Positions 12,930-45,305 of a stretch of DNA of 56,938 bases are shown here, piece by piece; positions within the stretch are counted from its first letter, which is position 1, and the number at the start of each line of letters is the position of its first letter. Under the pieces are notes generated by a model, which was not told where the DNA came from, ran no database searches, and saw only the letters and a program-made list of their open reading frames with translations. Source of the stretch: a virus (lineage: Duplodnaviria > Caudoviricetes); IMG/VR virus record IMGVR_UViG_3300030107_001272, positions 1-56,938 of that record. One strand, written 5' to 3'. Made by a program: the position numbers and the translations under genes.

Positions 12930-15900
12930 TGCCACTATTTACAGTTACAGCACCTGACGGAAAAAAGTACACTATAAATGGGCCAGAGGGTTCTACTCAA
13001 CAAGATGCTATTCTTGAGGTGCAAAAACAACTTAGTACTCAACCTTCTACCACTCCTGATACAGACAATACAGTAGAAGCGTTGACTCAACCTACACCTG
13101 AAGAAGATGAAAGAGCTAGAATAAAACAAGATACAATAGAAGAGTTAAAAGAGGATGACTTTACTTATAGTGATCTAAAACAAAATCAAGAAGTGCAGAA
13201 TGCTGCTATTAGATTTGCTAATAATAGATGGGGAGAAGACAGTGTAGCTCCTGAAGATGCTATTGATGAAGTAATAGAACACTTTAGAAGCTTTGATGTT
13301 AATGAAATAACTGCAGGGCGTGACTTTGGCTATGTTAGTGGCCTAAAAACAGATGGAAAAGAAGCAGAACTTAACGACTATAGATTGTTGTTTAATGCGT
13401 ATAATGAATTACCTAATCTGTATGAAGAAGGGGCAGCTCCTGGTGCATTCTTGGACTATGCAGAAGGCTTACTTACTGCACCCTCTACTTGGATTGGTGC
13501 ATTACTACCTGTAAGTGGTGGTAAAATTGCAGGTCAAGCAGCTGTACAAGCATCTAAGCTAGGTATTGCTAGGCTTGTTGGAACTATGGCAGCTAATCCA
13601 ATTAAAACTACTATTGCAGTTGAGGGGTTAGGTGGCGTTGCACAAGATGTTGCGGCACAAAAAACTTTAATAGAAGCTGATATACAAAAAGAATATTCAG
13701 AAGCACAGACAGGTATAGCCTTTGCACTAAGTGCAGCACCTGCCTCTCTTATTCCTTTGTTTGCTAAACAAAAAACAGTAGCTTGGGTGGAAAGAAATAC
13801 AGGCAATATTATTGAGGAATCTACTGAGGCTATTAAAAAACGTACAGAAAATGGTAATAAAAAAGTAGATACATTTTTGTCAGGTAAAAAACTAGATGAA
13901 AAACAAACTCTATTTAATAACATAGCTACTAGATTATCTACTGCTGATGAAACACTTAGACCTTTAAACGAACAACTAGTAGCAAAAGGACAAACAACTC
14001 TTAAAGGTATCCAAGGTTCTAAAAATGTATACAATGAAGCAGACATAAATGCACCCTTAAAATTGTCTATAGAAGCTCAACGATTTAAAAATATTACAGG
14101 GGCTTTGTCTGAATTTCTATATAAAAATGGAGGACTTCAGGAAGGAGAAAGAATCACTGAAGGACTAGCACGTGCATTAAGAAAGCAAGGAGCAACCGAT
14201 GAAGTTGCTGATAACTTTGGAGAATTTTTAAAGAAATATAATCTAACCACTGATGATGTAGCAAATGTTTTTATGTCTGAAGTATCTGAAGCAGGTAGGC
14301 TTCTTCAAACGGTAGGTATGGAAAAGAAAAACTTTAATAAGTTTATGCAAGACTTAGATGATATTGCAAACTATGATCTATTTGGATTTGATAAACAAGC
14401 AGTTGAAAATATAAAGAAAGCTAATAAAGTTGCTAAAGATGGTAGTGTAAGAAGCTCTTTAGGTGGTGGGTTAAAGGCTGTTGATCAAGCAAGACTTGCT
14501 TTTATGACTTCTCAAGTTGGTACGACAGTACGCAATACTATATCTGGATACTCACGTATAGGTTTTGATGTACTAACTCAAACTGTGAATAGAGGAATAC
14601 AGAAAGCCACAGGCACTGCACCGTTAACTCCTAACAGTGATGTGTTTGCTATTGCTTATGGTCTTGTTAATAGAAAAGAATCTAGTGCAGTACGATCTAT
14701 TTTTCAAGAGGGGTTTGGTAAAGAAGCAGGTAGACTATTCAGAGAACTAGCTGATGTTCAAGATGTAACTAACGGAAAAGTATCTAGACTACACGGTGTA
14801 TCACGACAATTAAATGCACTGAATACTTTGAGCGATAATATGTTTAAACAAGCTGCCCTCACTGGAAGTTTAAAAAGACAACTCAATGTTATGTATAGCA
14901 AAGCATTAGATGCAGGGGCAAAGATAGATGGCAAACTAGTAACTAAAGAAAACTTTGATCTAATTGAAATTATGAGAACAGGTAGATTCAACGATGTATT
15001 TGGTACTAAGGATGGAAAAGTTGCACTCAAGCAAGCTGTAGAAGAGGCATTAGAATTTACATATCAAAGATCTTTTCAGAATGATACAGCCAGAGCATTC
15101 TCTAATGTAGTGCATGCTGTTCCTTTTATTGGTACATCTTTTGTACCCTTCCCTAGATTTATGATGAATGCTATGAAGTTTACTTATGAGTACTCACCTT
15201 TTAATATGGCTGCTTATCGTGAGGCTTTTCAAGTTGCAACTGGAACAGGACAACGTGAGATAGGACAATCGTATGAGCAAGTATCTAAGGGTATGGTAGG
15301 AGTTGCTGCTCTTGCAGGTGCTACTGCGTTTAGAATGTCTGAACTAGCAGGAGATAGATGGTATGAAGCAAGAAGCACAGAGGGTGGCACAACAGATCTA
15401 AGACCTATGTTTCCTGCAGCACCCTATCTATTCTTAGGTGATTTAATAGCAAGACAGATAAAAGGTGAGCCTGTTATGGAGAATAGAAGAACTATACAGG
15501 ATGGTATACAGGCTATTAGTGGCGCACAATTTAAAGCAGGTATGGGATTATACATGCTTGAAAATGGTTTAGAGGATCTTACTTCAGGTGATACAGAAAG
15601 AGTTAATAAAATGATAGCTAACTTTGGTGCTAACATACTTAGTACTTTTACAATACCTGCCACTGTTCTTCAAGACCCATACAATACATTTATATCTAAA
15701 GACGATGAACGCATCATTAAAGATACTAACAGCGATAGTATGTTTAATTTGATTGTAAATAAAACAATTGCTAGATTACCGGGCAACAATGCTTTAGCGG
15801 AATATCTAGAAGATACTTTAGGTAAGGATATTTACAAAGCACCAGAACCTTTAGAGGTAGCATCAAGTGGCGAAACCATACGAAGAACTACGCCACTTAC

Positions 15901-25921: not shown

Positions 25922-26683
25922 TTATACTCCTATGTTGGTTAGGTTTTCTATATCTATTTCGTTTCTATACTTCAAGTCATCGGTCAACTTCAATACACCT
26001 ACCTTGTCTACGTGTTGGCGTAGCTCTTTGGCGAACTGCATTGTCTTAGGTAACGCATCGGGATCTAACGCTACAATTGCTGTTGAGAACTGCGACAAGT
26101 ACTTCTTGTGTGCTTCGGAAAGTGACGTACCCAACACAGCCACCCCGACATATACGCCAATCTCGCCTACAACTACAGCACTGACGCAATCCTCAACAAC
26201 TACAGCAACAGTACCACACCCATAAGTAAAAGGCAAGTCACTATTGCCATACCTTTTCCACTTAGGTAGTCGTTGGTCTGTTGCCCTACCGATTGCGTCT
26301 ACACATCTCCACGATTTCCATATGGTAAACACAACACGATCCTCTTTAACATCGTACATCAACTCCAGATCTTTAGGTAGTCGGTATTGATCTACAAACT
26401 TTTGTGTATAGGATGGTTGATAGACTAGTTGTTTAGGTAACTCCCAATCTATATCACTACTAGTATCCTCTGGTGGTGCAAAAGATTTCTTAATGTCCTC
26501 TGCACTCAAGCGTACACGCTTACCCCCACTCACAGTACAGTTAGCTTTATAACAATTCCATATCAAGCTACCCATATTGTTAGTGATAGTAAATGTTTTC
26601 CTACCCCTACACACAGGACAGTCAACACGTTTAGTCTCACCATTCTTAACATCATAATCCCATACACTCCACATGTTATACAC
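25922..26683 (-). CDS. DNA primase (zinc ribbon plus TOPRIM)
   Basis: CPVC...CYKANC, VVEDCVSA, ALDPDA. Confidence 0.85.
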   Translation of the reverse strand: MYNMWSVWDYDVKNGETKRVDCPVCRGRKTFTITNNMGSLIWNCYKANCTVSGGKRVRLSAEDIKKSFAPPEDTSSDIDWELPKQLVYQPSYTQKFVDQYRLPKDLELMYDVKEDRVVFTIWKSWRCVDAIGRATDQRLPKWKRYGNSDLPFTYGCGTVAVVVEDCVSAVVVGEIGVYVGVAVLGTSLSEAHKKYLSQFSTAIVALDPDALPKTMQFAKELRQHVDKVGVLKLTDDLKYRNEIDIENLTNIGV

Positions 26684-27788
26684 CCTCCTGCTGCTTCATC
26701 GCAGATGATACCCATGTTTTTCTAGTTGTCAAGGCATTAGTTGCAGATGCCAAAGTATTTTTCATATAGGGTGTAACTGACGCAGGGTTAGCATGCCCAC
26801 TAACAGACATGATCTGTGGTAGTGGCACACCACCATCAACCATCTCCATTATACCAGACCTTCGTAAGTCTAGTAGGCGTAGATCATCAGACAACTTAGC
26901 CTTGCGTATGACACGCCTACCTAATTGGGATAGGTTCATCTTACCATAAGGATGATATGCCCCATCAGTGGGGTTTACATTAGGTGCTACGTACCTTTGA
27001 AAGCCAAAGTCTTTTCTCTGATCAAGCAAAGTCTGTCGTAATGTATCATTCACAGGTAACTCCACCTCTGCCCTACGTTTAGACTGTTGTAAATATAACA
27101 CAGTCATGTCCTTATTGAATCTATCCCACTCTAATACACGCATGTCACCGACACGCTGACAAAACTCATAGGCCATCTGTACTATTAACGCAATGCTACG
27201 TGTAGAGAAATCAGCATATGCCACATCAAGAAACTGTTTAACTTCATCCCTCTTCCAAATGGCAGTTCTCTTTTGTGCAGCCACACGTTTAATGTTAGCA
27301 AAGGGATTCTTGTAGGCTTGCTCTTGTTCAATAGCATGATTGTATACACGTGATACACACGTACATACATGATTGGCAAAGCTAACACCACGTTCAAGCC
27401 ACAGTTGATAATGTTTCTTGGCTAACTTAGAACTAATATCCATGAATCTCCTCTGTCCTAGTGACTTATTTGCAACAGATAAAAAGTATTTGTAATCCTT
27501 CTGTGAGAAATCTCTTAACTTTTGAAAATCATATGACTCCAAGTAGCTGTTGATAAGACATGTCAAGGTACTATTTGATTTTATATTTGTAGCTGTTGCA
27601 TTTTTATCATACCATTCATCTATCTTCTGGTTGTCTTCACGTACCAGTTTACGTACCTGCTTCAGGTCAGACCCAAACTGTCTGCGTGTGACAACACCTG
27701 CATCGACTAACTTCTGTGGTGGGTTGAATCTGTACTCAACCACACCACATGCCGTAGTCCTAGCCTGTGTATATCTAGGAAGTTTCAT
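26676..27788 (-). CDS. int: tyrosine recombinase/integrase
   Basis: QRVGD, QSKR, DLRRS, SGH...PY catalytic motifs. Confidence 0.88.
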   Translation of the reverse strand: MKLPRYTQARTTACGVVEYRFNPPQKLVDAGVVTRRQFGSDLKQVRKLVREDNQKIDEWYDKNATATNIKSNSTLTCLINSYLESYDFQKLRDFSQKDYKYFLSVANKSLGQRRFMDISSKLAKKHYQLWLERGVSFANHVCTCVSRVYNHAIEQEQAYKNPFANIKRVAAQKRTAIWKRDEVKQFLDVAYADFSTRSIALIVQMAYEFCQRVGDMRVLEWDRFNKDMTVLYLQQSKRRAEVELPVNDTLRQTLLDQRKDFGFQRYVAPNVNPTDGAYHPYGKMNLSQLGRRVIRKAKLSDDLRLLDLRRSGIMEMVDGGVPLPQIMSVSGHANPASVTPYMKNTLASATNALTTRKTWVSSAMKQQEGV

Positions 27789-28719: not shown

Positions 28720-29112
28720 CTACTTGTAGAATATATGATCCCCCACTTGCTTAACAACTCGCAAGCTGTCTGCCCAATAGGGGTTTACTTCTGTGGTGTG
28801 ATAGTGTGTCGCACCATTCACTACATCTATACTGTTGTTGTCATCAAGCATCATACCTGCCAACATCATAGACTTCTGCCATGCTTTGTCCTCATGTGGT
28901 GTGTCACTTGCACCATCACATGTCCAAGAAAAAGCACAGATGCTCTTACCTTTTTGATACACTACATCACATACTGTATCAGGATAGTGTTTACTATCCA
29001 CTCTGTTGACAGTTACCTGTGCCACTGCCAACTGTCCTGCCGTACTCTGATCACGTGCTTCGTGATAGATGTTTAGTGCAAGGCAGACCAATGCACTTTT
29101 GAGTAATACCAT
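28720..29112 (-). CDS. SleB-like cell wall hydrolase (Hydrolase_2)
   Basis: CLALNIYHEAR...VAQVTVNRV...FSW...GATHYH...HIFY. Confidence 0.9.
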   Translation of the reverse strand: MVLLKSALVCLALNIYHEARDQSTAGQLAVAQVTVNRVDSKHYPDTVCDVVYQKGKSICAFSWTCDGASDTPHEDKAWQKSMMLAGMMLDDNNSIDVVNGATHYHTTEVNPYWADSLRVVKQVGDHIFYK

Positions 29113-30489: not shown

Positions 30490-30839
30490 TTTCTCGTACT
30501 TTCTATGCTGTTAATCTTGTGTTCAAGTGTATGAACAGCATGACGTAATCCATAGGTTATACTATCTGTCCACTTATCTTGTGTTATCTCTGGCTTCTCG
30601 TCAATGTACACTCTAATGTGGGTACAAGCCTCAATAGGCGCACCTTTTGACCAATAGGTATCAGGGTACTTAACCTTGTCAAGGTACTGCCCCTTGACCC
30701 TTATATTGTATCTGTGCTTGTTTAAGTATTTCTTCATCAGCCTTACCAACTGCTGTCCTTCTTCGTCATTAGGTATCTCACAGAATTGATAGCGTGAATT
30801 CTTTTGGTAGTGCTTATGCTTTTCTAAATTAGTTTTCAT
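30486..30839 (-). CDS. hypothetical protein
   Basis: 117-aa ORF with ATGA overlaps. Confidence 0.6.
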   Translation of the reverse strand: MKTNLEKHKHYQKNSRYQFCEIPNDEEGQQLVRLMKKYLNKHRYNIRVKGQYLDKVKYPDTYWSKGAPIEACTHIRVYIDEKPEITQDKWTDSITYGLRHAVHTLEHKINSIESTRK

Positions 30840-31828
30840 CTCTTTACTCCTTTCAATGCTTGGTATCCACAGCCACAGCCATCAAACAAACTCACGACAG
30901 TACCAAGTGACTGTTCAGGTATGCCATTGAGTATGTGCTTGATCACATCCACTGTCCATCCATTACCTATCATCTTGTATCGCCTTGAATTGCTGATCTG
31001 TTTGACCTGTTTATCAGGGAAGATACCTACCTTGGTATACCAATCGGGCATAGTCTGCAATCGTTCACACTCAAGAGGTGTCAATGCTCTCCAACGTAAG
31101 TCACCATCCTCAACCTTCGGCATGCGCCACCCACCTTGCATGGTGGTCAGGCCAGAGGACTTAGCCTTACGAGAGTAGACACGCTTGATGATGTCATAGC
31201 CTTTGAGGTTAGCTTCACCCACTTGTCTGCATTGAGTATGCTTGTTGAACACCACTTGTCTACGTGCTTTCTCAAAGTACATCTTCATAGATCCACCCTT
31301 AAAATAGTTAGCGTCTACACAGTAGGCTTTCTCTCTGTCGGTCATGCTCTCATCCTCAAGGATATCCTCAAGGTTGATACCAAGATCAGGCAGATCGTCA
31401 TGGGGTATGTTAGTCCAATACAAACGCTTACGATTCTGTGCAGATACAGACGCAGAGTTATGTACACGTGGCTCACATCCGAACTCACGTGAGAACACAT
31501 CCATATATTCCTTCTTCATAGGAGTTTCTTCAATGAGAAAGTACTTAGGTTTCCACTGGTGGAACAACCTAAAGAACTCTATTGTAGGCTTGGCTCTCTC
31601 GTCATTAAAGTTAAGCTGATTACCTGCAAAGGAGAATGGTTGACAAGGTGGGCCTGCCATTAGCAGGTCTATACCTTTGTGTACATACATAGGCTGTTTA
31701 AATACATTATTTCTAACGTGCCTGATACCAAGTACACTACCTATCTGCTTTACGTCAGGGTGATTGTAGTGAGCGACCCCCATAGCGTAGGGGTCTATCT
31801 CACTTGCGAATGCTTGTTGGTATTGCAT
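30836..31828 (-). CDS. DNA cytosine-C5 methyltransferase, circularly permuted
   Basis: ASEID (II), GPPCQPFS (IV), QNRKRLYW (VIII), LTPLECERLQ (IX), IGNG (X), then VVSLFDGCGCG (I) at the C-terminus. Confidence 0.88.
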   Translation of the reverse strand: MQYQQAFASEIDPYAMGVAHYNHPDVKQIGSVLGIRHVRNNVFKQPMYVHKGIDLLMAGPPCQPFSFAGNQLNFNDERAKPTIEFFRLFHQWKPKYFLIEETPMKKEYMDVFSREFGCEPRVHNSASVSAQNRKRLYWTNIPHDDLPDLGINLEDILEDESMTDREKAYCVDANYFKGGSMKMYFEKARRQVVFNKHTQCRQVGEANLKGYDIIKRVYSRKAKSSGLTTMQGGWRMPKVEDGDLRWRALTPLECERLQTMPDWYTKVGIFPDKQVKQISNSRRYKMIGNGWTVDVIKHILNGIPEQSLGTVVSLFDGCGCGYQALKGVKR

Positions 31829-32160
31829 TAGCCATTAGCCTTTCTCTTTTGTCCGACATCGGACTTTGTTACAGTGTAGCTACCCTTATCTACAGTAGCA
31901 CCCTTGCCGTACTTACGCACAATATGATCAGGGTGATTCTTCTGAATGAACTGTATCCTATAGACAATCCTATTGAATGGCTCATTCAAAGTGGAAGCAA
32001 TCTCTTTGATAGTACAATCTTGGTATACTTCCATTAGTATGCCATCAATAGTCGCATAGTTGTAGCTATAGTTCCTTGCTCGTTTCATGTGGAACGTGTG
32101 ATTGCTGTAGTCTACAATTTCTAGGGCAGGGTTATTTGCTGTGTTGATTTGCTGTGTCAT
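31828..32160 (-). CDS. putative helix-turn-helix DNA-binding protein
   Basis: TIKEIASTLNEPFNRIVYRI resembles an HTH. Confidence 0.5.
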   Translation of the reverse strand: MTQQINTANNPALEIVDYSNHTFHMKRARNYSYNYATIDGILMEVYQDCTIKEIASTLNEPFNRIVYRIQFIQKNHPDHIVRKYGKGATVDKGSYTVTKSDVGQKRKANG

Positions 32161-32414
32161 AATAATTTCTCCTTATTATATGTTGTTGCATCTTGGGGTT
32201 GAAATATAAAACCTAGATCACTAGGCTCGTCTTCAATCTCGTACTCCTTTACGAAATCGAACTCTGTTTGAAGGTTAGGGTAGAATAGCTTTGCTAATCG
32301 CATCACATGATCTACCGCTTCCTTCCAATCTTTTACAGGTGTAGCATTACTATCCACTGTCACAATAGATGGTTGCTTTTCTATGGATACACCTATCTCA
32401 TAGTACATAGCCAT
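32157..32414 (-). CDS. hypothetical protein
   Basis: Probable start MAMYY at 32414 after RBS aaggag. Confidence 0.6.
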   Translation of the reverse strand: MAMYYEIGVSIEKQPSIVTVDSNATPVKDWKEAVDHVMRLAKLFYPNLQTEFDFVKEYEIEDEPSDLGFIFQPQDATTYNKEKLL

Positions 32415-32415
32415 G

Positions 32416-32535
32416 CTATCTCCTTCTCTTTGCAAGCGTGTCTATCTTAGCGACAAGCCAACCTGTTATAAAGCATGCATATCCAAATACACATGCCATG
32501 AAAAACCACATATAAATTTCAGGTATCTGTTCCAT
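32416..32535 (-). CDS. 39-aa membrane peptide (not in the ORF track)
   Basis: MEQIPEIYMWFFMACVFGYACFITGWLVAKIDTLAKRRR; TAATG coupling and RBS aaggag. Confidence 0.6.
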   Translation of the reverse strand: MEQIPEIYMWFFMACVFGYACFITGWLVAKIDTLAKRRR

Positions 32536-32681
32536 TACGCATATCTCCTTTTGTTTTTGCGTTCCTGTCTGTAGGCATTGCCATGCCTTGTCTTATCTCT
32601 GAGGTTAAGCTTCTTCTTCTGCTTGAACTTCTCAAAGTTCTTTACTTCGTAATGCGTTACGCTTCGCTTTCGCTCTGTCAT
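32535..32681 (-). CDS. 48-aa basic hypothetical protein (not in the ORF track)
   Basis: MTERKRSVTHYEVKNFEKFKQKKKLNLRDKTRHGNAYRQERKNKRRYA. Confidence 0.5.
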   Translation of the reverse strand: MTERKRSVTHYEVKNFEKFKQKKKLNLRDKTRHGNAYRQERKNKRRYA

Positions 32682-32787
32682 AGCTACCCTTTCCTTTCTT
32701 AGGTCTAACTGTTTGCATTGGTTTACGTAGCATCAGCATTGCCTTTGCTACAGGATTAACTCTTGTGATTGTAAGTTTCTTTTTCAT
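32632..32787 (-). CDS. ArfA-like small basic protein, 51 aa (not in the ORF track)
   Basis: MKKKLTITRVNPVAKAMLMLRKPMQTVRPKKGKGSYDRAKAKRNALRSKEL; TAATG-coupled to the upstream gene. Confidence 0.65.
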   Translation of the reverse strand: MKKKLTITRVNPVAKAMLMLRKPMQTVRPKKGKGSYDRAKAKRNALRSKEL

Positions 32788-33521
32788 TACGCTACCCACT
32801 TCTTTCCTGTGCCATGTGCAGGTATGAGTATGGACTTGGCATTGATCTTCATGCCACTACATAGCTTACACTTGTCACATGTAGTACGTCTACCTGCTTC
32901 CGCACTGGCAGGACATAGCACCTCTTTGTCTTTCACCATAGATGTAAGGTGGCCTACCCTAAAGGTACGTTCACCTTTTGCCCAAGCTACCTTGGCTTCT
33001 TCCACTGTGTCAGCACTACGCATGCACACAGTAGGATCGTAGTCAGCACCAACTGTATTAGCTTGGTGACTGTAAGCCGTATGTGCTTTAGCATGCTTGA
33101 TCCATAGCTTGTTATTTCTTTTAGGCACACAAGCAGGATCACCGTACATACCTAGACGTACAGTCCTATCCCTTGTCATCTCAACAAAGTCAACCGTCTT
33201 GATGCGAGGGTATTTACCTGCCTTGTATGCTTTGTACACACCTAGTATACTTAGCAACATGACATAACATCCACGTTCATCAGCCGTAGCCCGATCATCT
33301 CTGTCATGTGGCTTGCCACGTAAATGACACGTGCCACAGATAGAGTAGTCTTCACCACTCTTGTTGGCAGAGATAGGATCAATGTCACTACGTATGTATA
33401 GGATTTGGATCATGTTACCTGTCTTGCTATTGTTACTACCTGTTAGTGCTATAGCTACGATAGGCTTGCCATCAAGTAAGCTATCACCTTCGTATAGTAT
33501 ATATCCACTTGGCTTAGTCAT
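32787..33521 (-). CDS. Cys-rich protein, possibly Fe-S / radical-SAM-like (Gp88-like)
   Basis: SNNSKTG, ICGTC...CY, RLGMYGDP, TAYSH, CPA...CDKCKLC...HG. Confidence 0.5.
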   Translation of the reverse strand: MTKPSGYILYEGDSLLDGKPIVAIALTGSNNSKTGNMIQILYIRSDIDPISANKSGEDYSICGTCHLRGKPHDRDDRATADERGCYVMLLSILGVYKAYKAGKYPRIKTVDFVEMTRDRTVRLGMYGDPACVPKRNNKLWIKHAKAHTAYSHQANTVGADYDPTVCMRSADTVEEAKVAWAKGERTFRVGHLTSMVKDKEVLCPASAEAGRRTTCDKCKLCSGMKINAKSILIPAHGTGKKWVA

Positions 33522-33561
33522 CTCAATACCTTTCAGTTAAATTGTCCGACATCGGACTTTG

Positions 33562-33807
33562 TTACCCTTCATTACCACAGAGGCTATCCCATTCAGCAGG
33601 TGTCACACCTGTCATAATGAACTCACGCTGATCTGCATCAAGCGCAGGGAATACGTCTTGAACACACTCATCCCCCATGTAGTAGCGATCAAGCATACCC
33701 TGCGTGACAGGCAACACCATTGAGTTCACATTACCTGTGAAGTCTGATGAACGAGTGAGTTCTACTGAACCCTCTGCTACATGAGTACAATTCCAATTAG
33801 TAAACAT
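33562..33807 (-). CDS. small early hypothetical protein
   Basis: VQDVFPALDADQREFIMTG.TPAEW; RBS aaagga; flanked by two 18-bp repeats. Confidence 0.7.
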   Translation of the reverse strand: MFTNWNCTHVAEGSVELTRSSDFTGNVNSMVLPVTQGMLDRYYMGDECVQDVFPALDADQREFIMTGVTPAEWDSLCGNEG

Positions 33808-33848
33808 TTAATTTCCTTTCAGTTAAATTGTCCGACATCGGACTTGTT

Positions 33849-34091
33849 TCAATCTAGGTCTAAGACCCATTCGCCATACCTAAACCACGCTAGGTATACA
33901 GGCTGAAAGTAATTTCTACCCATTGCCTTATGAATGGGATAGTCTGTAGCATTTTCATCTCTACACTCCCAAACCTTAATCGTAGGTACGCCATTCAGGT
34001 GAACTACCTCTTTGACTTCGCACTCTACATACCCATAGTCTGTGCCGTAGCCTGAGTTAATCTTGTGACATGTTACTTTCATACCTTGCAT
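33849..34091 (-). CDS. small early hypothetical protein
   Basis: 80 aa; RBS aagga; flanked by two 18-bp repeats. Confidence 0.65.
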   Translation of the reverse strand: MQGMKVTCHKINSGYGTDYGYVECEVKEVVHLNGVPTIKVWECRDENATDYPIHKAMGRNYFQPVYLAWFRYGEWVLDLD

Positions 34092-34153
34092 GATTTTATC
34101 CTTTTCAAATTGTCCGACATCGGACTTGTTTCAGTTAAGTTATATTATATTAG

Positions 34154-34192
34154 TTATATAACACTTTCATATACATTTCAAGTGTTATATAA
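34154..34192. repeat. 13-bp perfect AT-rich inverted repeat
   Basis: TTATATAACACTT (34154-34166) and AAGTGTTATATAA (34180-34192). Confidence 0.85.
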
Positions 34193-34249
34193 ATAATATA
34201 TTATAAAGGCAGTTTATAGAGTTGCCTAGCTCTGCTAGTGAAAAGTTAC

Positions 34250-34954
34250 CTATAAAGGTAACTCTTCGGTAGTAATGGTCATGTTTTCTTCATCCACTGT
34301 TGGATTGCACACAGGTCTAGTTGTGCTTATTCCGAGCAATTCAGATAAAGGTAACTCTTCGCTTGTGTTGGCTACCTTTTGAGTAGCTTGAAAGTCAGTG
34401 ACAGGATCATCAGCTTCATCCATAAGTAGCTCTGCTACTTCCAGTATGCTGATGTTATGGACTTGTGTCCACAGCTTGACTGCTTGTACCAAGCTCTGCT
34501 TGCTTGAGCCTAGACTGATACTATCAGTACGAACCTCTGCTTTCGGTTTAGCTTCGCTAATGGTAGCTTCGCTAGATTGTCCGACATCGGACTTAACATC
34601 ACCTTCGGTGGAAGGCTTGTTTGCCTTGTTCACCGCTTTCTGCAAAGCAGATAAGCTTGTGAAACCTTTCTTGGACTTGGAGATGAAATCTCTAGCTACC
34701 TCTTCGTTTTCAACGAACCACAAAGCTTCGCTTCGTCTTTGCTTTGGGATATCCTTGAGACCAACTCTAGAGAGTTGAGCAGAGGATATACGACCATTTG
34801 GGCTTTCAGCCTTGAGTTGCTTCAGCAACTTGCCTAACCGAGTGTCAAAGCCTTTGGCTTGAGTAGTAACCCTAACGCAGTTAAGCTTTTTCCACCAAGC
34901 ATTTAAGGCTTTGCCTTCTCTGACGAGGTCAGCGATGTTTGCATAATTTCCCAT
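34250..34954 (-). CDS. first early gene, hypothetical
   Basis: 234 aa, RBS aagga, immediately downstream of the leftward promoter. Confidence 0.7.
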   Translation of the reverse strand: MGNYANIADLVREGKALNAWWKKLNCVRVTTQAKGFDTRLGKLLKQLKAESPNGRISSAQLSRVGLKDIPKQRRSEALWFVENEEVARDFISKSKKGFTSLSALQKAVNKANKPSTEGDVKSDVGQSSEATISEAKPKAEVRTDSISLGSSKQSLVQAVKLWTQVHNISILEVAELLMDEADDPVTDFQATQKVANTSEELPLSELLGISTTRPVCNPTVDEENMTITTEELPL

Positions 34955-35041
34955 TTCGATTTTCCTTTGTTTGTTTTGGTTTTGTTTTTATAAGAGAACA
35001 ATATATCTCTCACAAGAAGTGAGATATATTTTCTCGTTAAA

Positions 35042-35070
35042 AACATAAACCAATACAACCTAGCTGTCAA
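35042..35070 (-). promoter_or_regulatory. leftward (early) sigma70-type promoter
   Basis: TTGACA-17 bp-TATGTT. Confidence 0.65.
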
Positions 35071-35424
35071 GTCGGTGAGGGGATATGTACCACACTAACT
35101 AAAGTTAGTGATAGGTGTATTTTTGGGGTATCTGTGGCAGATTTATCTGTCAACTGATGTGATAACAGTTTAATCTTTCGATTAAATGCCTTATTTTGTT
35201 GGGTTTTGTCAGCCTTGTGTGGATGGATGACGCATGCTTGTGTTCACATTTGCGTGGCTAGGCTACCTAGGCATGTATCTGTGTACATACAGGGGTGTAG
35301 GCAAGGGCCAGTGCGCCCCCATACGTATACGTATACACATATATACACAGATCAGGTAAATCACTTGTTAACCACAGTATATGTATCATAAATAACACAC
35401 ATCTAGTATAATCGTACACACATA

Positions 35425-35453
35425 TTGACTACCCTATTGTTTTGTGGTATAAT
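35425..35453 (+). promoter_or_regulatory. rightward sigma70-type promoter with extended -10
   Basis: TTGACT-17 bp-TATAAT, preceded by TGG. Confidence 0.8.
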
Positions 35454-35476
35454 TATATATAGACATAACGAACGGT

Positions 35477-35552
35477 ACACTTTAACTGTCTACACTTTAA
35501 CTATATATTACCTAAAATATAAATAACACTTTAAATGCTAAACACTTAAACT
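35477..35552 (+). repeat. four 11-bp direct repeats, ACACTTWAAMT
   Basis: Copies start at 35477, 35492, 35526 and 35542. Confidence 0.8.
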
Positions 35553-35601
35553 GTGTATTGTTAACATAAATATCCGTACTAATTAAAAAAAGATATTGAC
35601 A

Positions 35602-35808
35602 ATGGCTAAAAAATCAGTAAAACTATACACAGACAATGTTATTGAAGAGTTTTATAAAGCTATAGCTAATAACAGTCTGCATAAACTCCACATACCACAT
35701 AGTGATGTATTCTACGTAAGAAAGGCGGTAGAGTCTCGCTATGGTAGGTCTTTTTCACTTAAAGAAGTGGAAGAAGCGATGATCGCTGAAGGGTGGTCTG
35801 GTAATTAA
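35602..35808 (+). CDS. hypothetical protein
   Basis: IPHSDVFYVR motif; probable ATG at 35602. Confidence 0.6.
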   Translation: MAKKSVKLYTDNVIEEFYKAIANNSLHKLHIPHSDVFYVRKAVESRYGRSFSLKEVEEAMIAEGWSGN

Positions 35809-35828
35809 AGTAAAAGGAAACTTTAAAT

Positions 35829-36743
35829 ATGGCAAGAGATTACAGTACTAATAGATATAAAGATAAAATTAAGAAGATACAACAGCAAAAAAGAACAGCT
35901 GCAGATAAAAGAAAATCCGTAAAGGATCTTAAACGAGAGGTATCTTCTAATAAAAAGATTGACGCTCGTAATAGAAAGAATAAAGCTAATGAAGCTTTTG
36001 GTAAAAGAGTCGATACGATTCTAAGTTTATTTACAGGTAATAAAAAAGCTAGGCCTGGTGCTAGGTCAGGAATTAAGACTGGAACTAAGACAGGGTTAAA
36101 TAGACCCATGAGTTTTAGTGATACAGCTAAAAAGAAAACATCACCTACAGTTGTAGCACCAAAAACTTACAGAAGTGGTAAGGTAGGAACACCAGGAATG
36201 GGAACACGTAGTGGAGTACAGACAGGTAAAAAACCTGAAGCAGGTGGATTTTACGCCTATGACAGACAGGGTAAAAAGGGTGAAAGCCCTAAAGCAAAAT
36301 CAAGAGCAACCCCTGGAACACCAGGAATGGGAACACGTGCAGGGCCTAAGACAGGTGGCAGGAAAGCTAAGACCTTAACTGAAGCTCAAAAGAAAGCTAT
36401 ACGAGATACAAAGCAAGTAACAGTTAAGAGTGGAGATACCTTAACCTCTATAGCAAAAAGTAAAGGCACAACGGTAGCTAATCTTAAAAAGATTAATCCT
36501 CAAATTAAAGATTTTGATAAGATTAAACCAGGACAAAAGATTAGATTTGGTGGATCAGATGCTCCTACAAAAAGAATAAGCGAAGTATCAAAGTCTCCTA
36601 CAAGGCCACGTACCATAGCCCAAGCACAGAAGATGGGCAAGAAGTACTTTTATGATAAGAATGGTAAGCGTAAGGCTGCCGTAACTGCAGAGCAGCTGAA
36701 GAAGTCAGGTCTAACCCTGTCTCAATGGCTTAAAAAGAAATAG
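35829..36743 (+). CDS. Lys-rich protein with a LysM domain
   Basis: VTVKSGDTLTSIAKSKGTTVANLKKINPQIKDFDKIKPGQKI. Confidence 0.8.
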   Translation: MARDYSTNRYKDKIKKIQQQKRTAADKRKSVKDLKREVSSNKKIDARNRKNKANEAFGKRVDTILSLFTGNKKARPGARSGIKTGTKTGLNRPMSFSDTAKKKTSPTVVAPKTYRSGKVGTPGMGTRSGVQTGKKPEAGGFYAYDRQGKKGESPKAKSRATPGTPGMGTRAGPKTGGRKAKTLTEAQKKAIRDTKQVTVKSGDTLTSIAKSKGTTVANLKKINPQIKDFDKIKPGQKIRFGGSDAPTKRISEVSKSPTRPRTIAQAQKMGKKYFYDKNGKRKAAVTAEQLKKSGLTLSQWLKKK

Positions 36744-43172: not shown

Positions 43173-45305
43173 ATGGCTGATGAAAAAGACAATATAATGA
43201 TAGATGATGAAGCTATTGCTATTGGCGATTCACCTAACGAAGATAGAAATATACAGAATATTATTTCTTTTGTTTTAGAAAAATATAAAAAAGCAGAAGA
43301 CTATAGACAAACTGATGAACAACGATGGCTTAAAGCATATAGAAACTATAGGGGTCTATACGGATCGGATGTTCAATTTACTGAAGCAGAAAAGTCGAGA
43401 GTCTTTATTAAAGTAACAAAAACAAAAACATTAGCGGCGTATGGACAAATTGTTGAAGTACTGTTCGCTAATAACAAATTTCCATTATCTATTGATCCTA
43501 CGGTACTTCCCGAAGGAGTTGTAGGTGATGTACATTTTGATGCAAAAAAACCTGAACAGTTAAAAAATAATGACGAGATGGAAAGCCCTTATGGTTTTGC
43601 AGGAGATGGCAAAGATATACCTAAAGGTGCAACACAAGATAGTTTAATGGAAATGCTTGGCCCATTAAAAGATGATCTTAAAGGAATAGAAAGTCTAGAA
43701 GAAGGTGCAGGAAAATCTCCTAGTGCTGCTACGTTTAGTCCTGCTATGGTAGCGGCTAAACAGATGCAAAAAAAGATACACGATCAACTTGAAGAGTCAG
43801 GAGCAACTAAGCATCTAAGAAGTACCGCATTTGAAATGGCTCTATTTGGTACAGGGATAATGAAAGGCCCATTTGCTATAGATAAAGAATATCCTAATTG
43901 GGATGAAAGTGGTGATTATAGCCCTAAGTTTAAAACAATGCCACAACTATCGCACGTATCGGTTTGGAACTTTTATCCTGATCCAGATGCTAATAACATG
44001 GATGAAGCTCAATACGTTATTGAAAGACATAAAATGTCACGTAGCCAAGTGCGTTCATTAAAAAAGCGACCACACTTTAGGGCTTCAGCTATTGATAGTT
44101 GTATAGAAATGGGAGAAAATTACGATAGAGAATATTGGGAAAGCGATTTAGCCGACTATTCTTTAGAGCATAATATAGATAGATTTGAAGTGCTAGAGTA
44201 TTGGGGTACAGTTGATACTGATCTTATTAAAGAACAGGGCATTACTGTACCTAAAGAATTAGAAGCGTTTGATGAGTTGCAAGCTAATGTTTGGATATGT
44301 AATGAAAAGGTATTAAGGTTTGTATTAAATCCATTTAAACCTGTACGTGTTCCCTATATGGCTGCACCGTATGAATTAAATCCTTATAGTTTCTTTGGAA
44401 TAGGCATAGCAGAAAATATGGATGATACGCAAACTCTTATGAATGGTTTTATGCGTATGGCTGTAGACAATGCTGTACTATCAGGTAATTTATTAATTGA
44501 GATTGACGAGACTAATTTAGTTCCCGGTCAAGATTTAAGTGTATATCCTGGTAAAGTTTTTAGAAGACAAGGTGGCGCACCTGGTCAGGCTATCTTTGGA
44601 ACAAAATTTCCTAATGTATCAAACGAAAACCTACAGCTATTTGACAAGGCTAGAGTATTAGCAGATGAATCTACAGGTTTTCCTTCTTTTGCACATGGAC
44701 AGACAGGTGTATCGGGCGTAGGTAGAACAGCCAGTGGTATCTCTATGCTTATGAATGCAGCTACTGGTAGTATTAAAACGGTTATAAAGAATATAGATGA
44801 CTACATGCTCAAACCAATAGGCGAAGGTTTTTTTCAATTTAATATGCAGTTTGACTTTGATCCTGAAATAAGAGGGGATTTAGAAGTGAATGCAAGAGGA
44901 ACAGAAAGTCTTATGGCTAACGAGGTGCGTAGTCAAAGACTAATGCAGTTCTTACAAGTTGCTTCTAACCCTGCACTTGCTCCCTTTGCTAAGATGGATT
45001 ATATTATCCGTGAGATTGCAAAGGCTATGGATCTTGATCCTGATAAGGTAGCTAATGATATGAGAGAAGCTGCCATACAAGCAGAACTTATGAAAGCTTT
45101 CCAACAACAACAACCCCCACAACAAGGCGCACCTGCAGGTGCAGATGCTATGGATACCTCTGGAGCAGGGGGTGGAAATATAGGTGTAGGACAAGCTCCT
45201 ACGCCAAATGAACAAGGATTTACAGGAAATGCACAACAAGGAGCAGCTACTCAATCGCCTCAAGGTGGTGGTCAACAATCCCCAACAGTGGGAAGTGTTC
45301 AATAA
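43173..45305 (+). CDS. portal protein
   Basis: 710 aa following terL; FGTGIMK, FYPDP, TASGISML; Q/G-rich tail. Confidence 0.85.
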   Translation: MADEKDNIMIDDEAIAIGDSPNEDRNIQNIISFVLEKYKKAEDYRQTDEQRWLKAYRNYRGLYGSDVQFTEAEKSRVFIKVTKTKTLAAYGQIVEVLFANNKFPLSIDPTVLPEGVVGDVHFDAKKPEQLKNNDEMESPYGFAGDGKDIPKGATQDSLMEMLGPLKDDLKGIESLEEGAGKSPSAATFSPAMVAAKQMQKKIHDQLEESGATKHLRSTAFEMALFGTGIMKGPFAIDKEYPNWDESGDYSPKFKTMPQLSHVSVWNFYPDPDANNMDEAQYVIERHKMSRSQVRSLKKRPHFRASAIDSCIEMGENYDREYWESDLADYSLEHNIDRFEVLEYWGTVDTDLIKEQGITVPKELEAFDELQANVWICNEKVLRFVLNPFKPVRVPYMAAPYELNPYSFFGIGIAENMDDTQTLMNGFMRMAVDNAVLSGNLLIEIDETNLVPGQDLSVYPGKVFRRQGGAPGQAIFGTKFPNVSNENLQLFDKARVLADESTGFPSFAHGQTGVSGVGRTASGISMLMNAATGSIKTVIKNIDDYMLKPIGEGFFQFNMQFDFDPEIRGDLEVNARGTESLMANEVRSQRLMQFLQVASNPALAPFAKMDYIIREIAKAMDLDPDKVANDMREAAIQAELMKAFQQQQPPQQGAPAGADAMDTSGAGGGNIGVGQAPTPNEQGFTGNAQQGAATQSPQGGGQQSPTVGSVQ

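Follow-up and report, generated by a model that had tools for sequence, protein, structure and literature searches.

In integrons, repeated palindromes in one orientation punctuate small promoterless genes; these attC sites are long and imperfect, and one stands after each cassette. The two-domain early protein O of phage lambda has its site within the linker-coding part of its own gene, where the ori-lambda iterons form a cluster of four beside an AT-rich tract. In IncP plasmid RK2 a single protein, the ParB-family global repressor KorB, serves many dispersed short palindromes (OB), both near and far from promoters; OB is bound as duplex DNA, and long-range silencing from distal sites has been described (PMC11790492, in excerpt). 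In T4-type phages, promoter-early stem-loops (PeSLs) are conserved short regulatory repeats located between small variable early genes; they act as recombination points, and indels and gene replacements are bounded by them (PMC2839356 and PMC4122927, both in excerpt). A repeat that can be compared with each of these is considered here: an 18-bp element, TTGTCCGACATCGGACTT, found in IMG/VR virus record IMGVR_UViG_3300030107_001272, together with gpA, the product of the first gene of the early operon in which the element lies. The record is a complete virus record of 56,938 bp, and its full length is called the window below.

The window DNA is weakly similar to Puniceispirillum phage HMO-2011 and to CRP roseophages. 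HMO-2011-type phages are among the dominant and widely distributed groups of marine viruses (PMC9038755, in excerpt). The element is a cis site that occurs clade-wide in HMO-2011-type marine podophages and is not peculiar to the window genome. We hold with moderate confidence that its copies form an array of putative duplex-DNA operators of gpA, with a logic like that of KorB, and that recombination at the repeats is secondary.

Five exact copies of TTGTCCGACATCGGACTT are present in the window, all on the + strand (Table 1). The chance expectation is 0.01 copies, at least five copies were obtained in 0 of 100 shuffles, and the window has no further match at up to three mismatches. With the local genes on the minus strand, the element reads AAGTCCGATGTCGGACAA in the sense direction. 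Its core is a 14-bp palindrome with a G/C-type or an A/T-type inner pair, GTCC(G/A)A-NN-T(C/T)GGAC. An earlier note, made from this DNA alone, had described the layout accurately: five exact copies in the same orientation, three of them intergenic, spaced 286 and 282 bp apart and each set directly before a ribosome-binding site and an ATG, with two of the three lying 2–3 nt past the upstream stop. The 31 identical bp that it reported for copies 2 and 3 were likewise confirmed (33529–33559 = 33815–33845, a direct repeat). The two copies in coding sequence, copies 1 and 5, both translate as K-S-D-V-G-Q in the same frame.

The exact 18-mer also occurs in 9 other IMG/VR contigs (22 copies, at most 6 per contig), where it is unchanged while the flanks have diverged. 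For a wider comparison, relatives were gathered by gpA alignment rather than by the element, to avoid selecting on the element itself; the comparison set consists of the best 80 of 169 confirmed IMG/VR relatives (780 kb), which with the window make 81 genomes. The consensus GTCC(G/A)A-NN-T(C/T)GGAC is found in 80/80 loci, in 2–9 copies each. Among the 949 palindromes of the form 6-N2-6 in the 780 kb, GTCCAA..TTGGAC accounts for 312 and GTCCGA..TCGGAC for 88; the runner-up has 24. The fit to the consensus is perfect in 417 of the 424 sites of the 80 loci and the window, stem positions 1–4 and 6 never vary, and variation is confined to pair 5, which among 312 unique sites is A:T in 222, G:C in 77, G:T in 10, A:C in 1, and C:T in 2. 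The centre dinucleotide is free (TG, CG, CA, or GG), and the flanks are weakly symmetric and A/T-rich (AA-N2-core-N2-TT); a profile of 219 unique flanks held no conserved hexamers. The copy in the gpA linker is retained (77 sites in 81 sequences) though the surrounding peptide is not. The 417/424 perfect sites and this retention without a conserved peptide indicate that the DNA letters are under selection. HMO-2011 has none of the clade consensus; it carries a sister form, GTCCG-ACAG-CGGAC, five times, in one case with a flipped centre, just before ribosome-binding sites. As a separate observation on the centre, CG is found in 1/88 G:C-type sites vs 91/312 A:T-type sites of the 80 loci; a G:C site with a CG centre would spell GACGTC, and the scarcity may reflect restriction-site avoidance or a constraint on shape.

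The element is confined to the front of the early region. All copies in the loci fall between −500 bp and about +4 kb of the gpA start, and no copy was found from −6000 to −500 (28–72 loci per bin). Nine complete or nearly complete genomes have 5–7 copies each, nearly all of them within 3–6 kb. Three complete relatives carry one further copy within the integrase gene; it has a GG centre and is read L-S-K-V-G-R. The sites fall into three classes: 72 upstream of gpA (in a bin of 73 loci), 77 in the gpA linker, and 272 downstream. The upstream copy is about 165–200 bp ahead of the gpA promoter, within the control region that separates the divergent operons, and apart from the linker copy it is the most conserved position. 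Distinct downstream copies are intergenic in 167 of 216 cases; among those within open reading frames (ORFs), 35 are in the S-(D/N/K)-V-G frame and about 14 in other frames, some of these ORFs probably being spurious. A Shine-Dalgarno sequence and a start codon (ORF of at least 40 codons) follow within 60 nt in 187 of 275 downstream copies, compared with 34% of random positions, and 133 of these 187 have 19–22 nt between core and start, where the distribution peaks. A sigma-70-like promoter (at least 9/12) ends within 60 nt upstream of 21/208 distinct downstream copies, vs 4.6% of random positions.

Within a genome the copies change type in concert, and they do so together with gpA. A single pair-5 type holds across all copies in 73 of the 81 genomes. 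The closest relative, L011, is 86–93% identical to the window over aligned blocks and has almost identical flanks; the five window copies are all GTCCGATGTCGGAC (G:C), and the four L011 copies are all GTCCAACGTTGGAC (A:T). On a gpA tree built without the trait columns the element type changes 12 times. gpA is the sole protein common to all loci, and three of its alignment columns separate G:C from A:T genomes. One of them (D or N) falls within the element's own codons; the motif KKGFTSL(S/T)ALQxAMx contains the other two, at residues 102 (Ser vs Thr) and 109 (N/A/Q vs R/K). With the type scored only from copies outside the gpA gene, Ser102 is present in 19/19 G:C genomes and Thr102 in 53/55 A:T genomes. 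Across 9 phylogenetically independent pairs, residue 102 changes the same way in 8, the opposite way in 0, and not at all in 1 (median p 0.008); residue 109 changes the same way in 7 of these pairs and the opposite way in 0. The Ser/Thr rule is obeyed by 15 of 16 independent 50%-identity representatives that carry both motifs. A hybrid lineage (L085–L088) combines Ser102 with Lys109; next to A:T sites it has mixed half-sites, GTCCG..TTGGAC. When 31 ORF families within about 7 kb of gpA were scanned without bias, no other real protein with a type-separating column came up, the remaining hits being the element's own codons or antisense frames over the element. As judged from these alignments, protein and site specificity change together. 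Among the roles that the earlier note had offered, an operator for a dimeric regulator is therefore the best supported, since the product of 34250–34954 (gpA) co-varies with the element type; the dimeric state is presumed.

The gpA family comprises 144 representatives at 50% identity in 1.84 billion proteins. gpA matches no Pfam family, no ParB-family Pfam match was obtained in 50 members at E ≤ 1, and a gpA profile run against 185,579 species genomes found no relative. The AlphaFold model predicts a six-helix N-domain (residues 7–112), a disordered linker (118–145) that is partly coded by the element, and two C-terminal helices (152–181). In this model residues 102, 106, and 109 lie on one helix (101–112), the last of the N-domain, with spacing i, i+4, i+7. 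In an exhaustive VIA-align fold search of 48,161 chains with both the whole gpA model and the N-domain model, the top match of each was 1r71_A, the KorB DNA-binding domain on operator DNA; the scores are weak (Z 5.1 over 92 aligned residues for the whole model, and Z 5.9 over 88 aligned residues with a root-mean-square deviation of 3.3 Å for the N-domain). The top 50 also include Spo0J (1vz0, Z 4.1), a second KorB structure (8qa8, Z 3.8), and ParB from a ParB-parS complex (6s6h, Z 3.6). The sole named structural neighbour of gpA in the ESM Atlas is a cluster with ParB_N in 72% of its members (TM 0.58). These predicted structures give a hint of a KorB/ParB-like fold, not membership of the family. 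With regard to the other end of the protein, gpA in the window has a 31-aa C-terminal extension (34250–34347) that repeats EELPL and is missing in L011, and a contig of run X2 skips 93 nt in this region; among the 81 gpA sequences, about 13 have ..(E/D)xLPF or G(L/I)PF as their last residues, and ..K(V/A)AA closes most of the rest.

In the operator mechanism proposed here, gpA helix 101–112 would bind each half-site, with residues 102 and 109 reading the fifth base pair. From 4–9 sites over the first 3–4 kb of the early operon, among them one within the gpA gene and, in most relatives, another in the control region ahead of the gpA promoter, the protein would control both early expression and the amount of gpA made. 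Shut-off by a roadblock or by a higher-order complex is the most likely mode. Because the same 20–50 bp (site plus ribosome-binding site) is repeated in direct orientation between small genes, homology-driven recombination or slippage would delete, duplicate, and swap the units between repeats. The likeness to KorB lies in the logic, one protein with many dispersed short palindromes near and far from promoters, and in the operator-bound domain of KorB being the best, though weak, fold match of the gpA N-domain. Unlike KorB, gpA has no N-terminal ParB CTPase domain (ParB_N/ParBc), its predicted DNA-binding domain beginning near residue 9 in a protein some 200 aa long. The two also share no sequence similarity, the site is a different one, the replicon is that of a podophage (lytic or temperate), the sites lie within about 4 kb, and no KorA-like partner was identified.

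Gene content does change at the element. L011 lacks exactly the 286-bp unit between the window copies ending at 33845 and 33559, which contains the 81-aa gene, and at this unit the window and L011 alignment blocks overlap by the 31-bp repeat. Changes of gene content bounded exactly by the repeat, which the earlier note had proposed to look for among relatives, are thus found. The slot of the 81-aa gene is empty in L007, where 93 bp separate two copies, and holds other small ORFs in L008; the 244-aa gene follows an element copy in the window and follows the methyltransferase gene in L008. A survey of all locus pairs for distinct clean indels of at least 100 bp gave 156, with the element at both edges in 15, at one edge in 33, and at neither edge in 108; positions no more than 35 nt from a copy make up only 5.8%. 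The 15 indels with the element at both edges have 21–52 bp of overlapping homology, and this variation in overlap is what homology-driven events, not a fixed cut, would be expected to give. The indels fit homology-driven recombination at a shared regulatory repeat, and on these alignments an integrase is not needed. In this respect the element resembles the PeSLs, as 15 indels, one of them in the window, are bounded by it on both sides. It differs from them in other ways: a PeSL combines a strong sigma-70 promoter with a terminator stem-loop, here only 21/208 copies are near a promoter-like site, and the element hairpin has 5 pairs with no proper sense-strand T tract. Co-variation with a phage protein, as seen for the element, is not reported for PeSLs in the excerpts of PMC2839356 and PMC4122927.

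The same events could be read as the work of a site-specific recombinase, either the tyrosine integrase or gpA, with the element as its crossover site and the small genes as mini-integron cassettes. In its favour, the element bounds units that come and go, one and the same slot differs in its genes between the window, L007, and L008, all copies within a genome are homogenised, and an integrase is present in the window and in 9/10 near-complete relatives. We nevertheless regard this reading as very improbable. The complete relative G008 has five copies of the element and no match to PF00589 (integrase), and the core consists of 5–6-bp arms around 2–4 bp, which is unlike the core sites of tyrosine recombinases. 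The overlaps of 21–52 bp, and the 108/156 indels with the element at neither edge, also speak against it. As in an integron, repeated palindromes in one orientation punctuate small promoterless genes; unlike attC, the site is a perfect 14-bp palindrome that stands ahead of the gene, is conserved letter by letter, and is tied to gpA, and the integrase gene lies about 4–7 kb away. The earlier note's crossover site is therefore upheld as far as gain and loss of units goes (L011; 15/156 indels), and its integrase or integron mechanism is not, given the 14-bp core with its 2–4-bp centre, the variable overlaps, and G008. Contigs of four public runs over 31000–36000 listed no joint between copies, a result that counts little against a recombinase and is uninformative overall, as these are Logan contigs, which break at the 31-bp repeat (X1 pieces 33065–33558, 33530–33844, and 33816–35636) and cannot show rare forms. 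RNA run X20 yielded only a few divergent contigs.

Several observations weigh against an operator array served by gpA. No PDB entry is a sequence relative of gpA, Foldseek with the gpA models returned nothing at E ≤ 0.001, and by the caveat of the VIA-align tool itself a Z below 8 can reflect a common helical arrangement, which leaves the fold match weak. The window lacks the upstream control-region copy. With a promoter at so few of the downstream copies, simple promoter occlusion is not the general mode. The excess of element-bounded indels is modest when set against gene boundaries, since about 17–30% of regional gene starts carry the element. Three features would also fit a hairpin on the sense strand: downstream of the promoter the centre is biased (TG 223 vs CA 29), G:T outnumbers A:C by 10 to 1 at pair 5, and the sharply fixed spacing to the start codon suits a role at the RNA level about equally well.

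These last features lead to the alternative that the site acts in mRNA, as a hairpin with a 5-bp stem and a 4-nt loop, 6–10 nt upstream of each Shine-Dalgarno sequence, that gpA, as a repressor or an activator, would bind as a translational operator of numerous early cistrons; T4 RegA and the operators for coat protein in RNA phages would be the parallels. Such a hairpin is predicted at all five window copies (about −7.7 kcal/mol), the HMO-2011 form retains the 5-bp stem and a 4-nt loop (ACAG), the preference for TG over CA is limited to the transcribed part, the excess of G:T over A:C at pair 5 would reflect G.U pairs, and the many downstream copies followed by a Shine-Dalgarno sequence and start would each be suitably placed. 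A RegA-like cluster is also among the weak feature-based Atlas neighbours of gpA (0.89), a match that the tool rates as a lead only. Each of these points has another side. The ten G:T sites come from one lineage and 3–4 homologous places; the spacing can be explained by genome compaction alone, and the TG bias by strand-biased C-to-T change at a central CpG. The linker copy in gpA is not ahead of any start codon, and the hairpins fold no better than shuffled sequence (z −0.4 to −1.7). Moreover, it is the loop that varies and flips, and the stem letters are invariant and never co-vary; hairpin-binding proteins are known to read RNA in the opposite manner. Centre flips are seen between close relatives (L003 vs L005, and L085 vs L087) as well as in the one HMO-2011 copy, and the conserved copy upstream of the gpA promoter has no orientation bias (TG 25 vs CA 24). 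The invariant stem with its flipping centre, the symmetric flanks, the unbiased upstream copy, and the co-varying residues on one helix face together suggest DNA. Given that gpA recognises the site, duplex DNA is probably the target, and action in mRNA is unlikely, though a possibility to be taken seriously.

An RNA processing hairpin, which the earlier note had also listed, fares worst among the roles named there: the stem has 5 pairs and no co-variation, and one copy lies between divergent operons. RNase III sites in the early mRNAs of T7-type phages have a double-stranded stem of about 20 bp or more. An RNase III site of this type was rejected for the element, whose five copies are each predicted to form no more than a 5-bp stem and a 4-nt loop. 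An extended hairpin was rejected as well, the positions just outside the core not being complementary.

The operator array also has to be set beside the possibility that the element is a centromere- or origin-like loading site, at which a gpA array next to the AT-rich spacer would start replication or position the genome, with lambda O at its iterons and ParB on parS as parallels. As with lambda O, a two-domain early protein has a site where its own gene codes for the linker; in addition, copy 4 borders on the AT-rich spacer with its long inverted repeat, the fold gives a hint of the ParB family, and a DnaB-like helicase and a family A DNA polymerase are encoded downstream. The acidic ..LPF tail of about 13/81 gpA sequences, which we take to resemble an SSB tail, would also suit such a role. 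Unlike lambda O, gpA has a single in-gene copy, and most copies are at the starts of other early genes; the sites are unclustered and spread over 3–4 kb at gene starts. The AT-rich spacer is at differing places in relatives, 50 gpA members have no ParB_N/CTPase domain, most gpA tails are not SSB-like, and no ParA was noticed, the whole window not having been scanned for ParA. On balance a loading site is improbable.

A weak intrinsic terminator or pause hairpin, antisense or bidirectional and acting without a dedicated protein, would account for the flagging of 4/5 copies as terminator-like on the + (antisense) strand, where the hairpin is followed by TTTGTT or TTGTTT; the same antisense flags appear in L032. 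Against it, the T tract is interrupted, the stem is just 5 pairs long, and the invariant stem letters, the concerted switches, and the co-variation with gpA are all left unexplained, so that this is the least probable of the explanations considered. A methyltransferase or restriction target was dropped as a candidate, as the A:T type is without the CCGA/TCGG letters.

An extension of the operator reading is that gpA and the element form a two-state code, in which Ser102/Asn109 would go with G:C and Thr102/Arg or Lys109 with A:T, with at least 11–12 flips in 81 genomes by way of the permissive combination Ser plus Lys, and in which the state would serve as an immunity or exclusion type spread by active gene conversion. 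This proposal is speculative and rather doubtful. If it is true, the gpA of a resident or co-infecting phage would shut down the early genes of rivals of the same type, so that a switch of type would give escape; gene conversion at the palindrome would spread the switch genome-wide and would also drive cassette exchange.

The coordinates of the features are given in Table 1.

Table 1. Element copies and associated features; positions are those of the window unless a relative is named.
Feature	Position	Strand	Remarks
Element copy 1	31849..31866	-	KSDVGQ codons at the C-terminus of a 110-aa ORF; 20 nt before the C5-methyltransferase ATG
Element copy 2	33542..33559	-	between the 81-aa ORF (stop 2 nt upstream) and the 244-aa ORF (ATG 20 nt downstream)
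Element copy 3	33828..33845	-	between the 80-aa ORF (stop 3 nt upstream) and the 81-aa ORF (ATG 20 nt downstream)
Element copy 4	34110..34127	-	between the AT-rich promoter/hairpin spacer (directly upstream) and the 80-aa ORF (ATG 18 nt downstream)
Element copy 5	34577..34594	-	inside the gpA gene; codes K121-Q126 of the predicted disordered inter-domain linker
gpA, 234 aa	34250..34954	-	first gene of the leftward early operon; proposed binding protein
Codons of gpA helix 101-112 (LSALQKAVNKAN)	34619..34654	-	S102 and N109 co-vary with the inner pair of the element
AT-rich spacer past gpA	34128..34249	-	inverted repeat and sigma-70-like hexamers
80-aa ORF, no assigned function	33849..34091	-	preceded by copy 4
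286-bp unit (copy 3 and 81-aa gene)	33560..33845	-	flanked by the 31-bp direct repeat; missing in L011
81-aa ORF, phrog_20898 (no assigned function)	33562..33807	-	variable unit
244-aa Cys-rich ORF, phrog_2554	32787..33521	-	preceded by copy 2 in the window; past the methyltransferase in L008/L012
gpA sigma-70-like promoter	35042..35070	-	TTGACA-17-TATGTT
Second, longer palindrome in gpA leader (gagaaaatatatctcac..gtgagagatatattgttctc)	34994..35035	-	also in distant relative L032 (5884-5925)
Extra element copies in integrase genes of relatives	G001 28772-28785; G003 43409-43422; G007 13747-13760		

Strand composition and ORFs define a leftward module that runs from about 34954 down to about 16000. 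It contains, in order, gpA, several small ORFs, a C5-methyltransferase gene, a PAPS-reductase-like gene, and a cell-wall hydrolase gene, followed by the tyrosine integrase gene (26676–27788) and the genes for the DnaB-like helicase and the family A DNA polymerase. The rightward structural module begins at about 35596. Sigma-70-like promoters point outward from the spacer between the modules, for gpA at 35070..35042 and for the rightward module at 35425..35453. By this layout the element is limited in the window to the first 3 kb of the early operon. The AT-rich spacer past gpA contains a 27-nt inverted repeat (34140–34166 / 34180–34206, 93% complementary) that overlaps promoter-like hexamers, TAGGCA-17-TATAAT at 34228..34200, directly upstream of element copy 4; related modules of the form TTAGTGAAAGT...TATACT are found ahead of element copies in L002, L004, L006, and HMO-2011. 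As for the longer palindrome, which the gpA leader carries just past the promoter, it could serve a different regulator as its site or form a leader hairpin.

In L032 (5747–5835) and 37 other relatives, the stretch from the upstream copy to the gpA promoter includes a conserved non-coding block of about 90 nt, which is not present in the window at 35071–35424. Its layout is ...GAGTTTAGCGCA..ACTTC-(variable hairpin)-TGCAGT..GAAACGRCARGCGCAGAGGATC. RNAalifold on 21 loci gave 15 pairs, of which 9 have two-sided compensatory changes and almost none are broken; the block has no Rfam, tRNA, or tmRNA match and may be a new structured RNA or DNA element. Around the element copies themselves and in five relatives, no Rfam family, tRNA, or tmRNA was found.

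The C5-methyltransferase gene next to copy 1 (30836–31828, 330 aa) has its FDG..G motif (VVSLFDGCGCG) C-terminal, and the methyltransferases of L007 and L008 (8808–9956 in L008) have theirs (VLSLFDGAS) N-terminal; the window enzyme may be circularly permuted or a different enzyme. In the variable region of the L008 methyltransferase there is an in-frame element copy (VKSDVGQS). Two overlapping, very basic small ORFs, 32632–32799 (55 aa) and 32535–32681 (48 aa), are kept in relatives; the former matches ArfA, the alternative ribosome-rescue factor, below threshold (22.4 bits vs a cut-off of 25.5). No T7-type RNA polymerase was matched in the window, a weak negative since the control genomes gave none either.

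The searched literature, which excludes supplements and the motif tables these may contain, has no description of the element or of gpA. A term search of the main comparative paper on HMO-2011-type phages (Qin et al., 2022; PMC9038755) gave no palindromes, hairpins, promoters, or intergenic elements. A search for "HMO-2011" with "palindromic" gave nothing on this element among the matches listed, and for five spellings of the 14-mer the matches listed were all unrelated.

For the HMO-2011-type group as a whole, these results define an early control region, and they give a testable role to its first early gene, gpA, which is without a family annotation. The paired changes in gpA and element would constitute a natural series of specificity switches, a protein helix set against a base pair, that can be tested by residue swaps. 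Part of the variation in gene content of the early region would be explained by recombination at a shared regulatory repeat.

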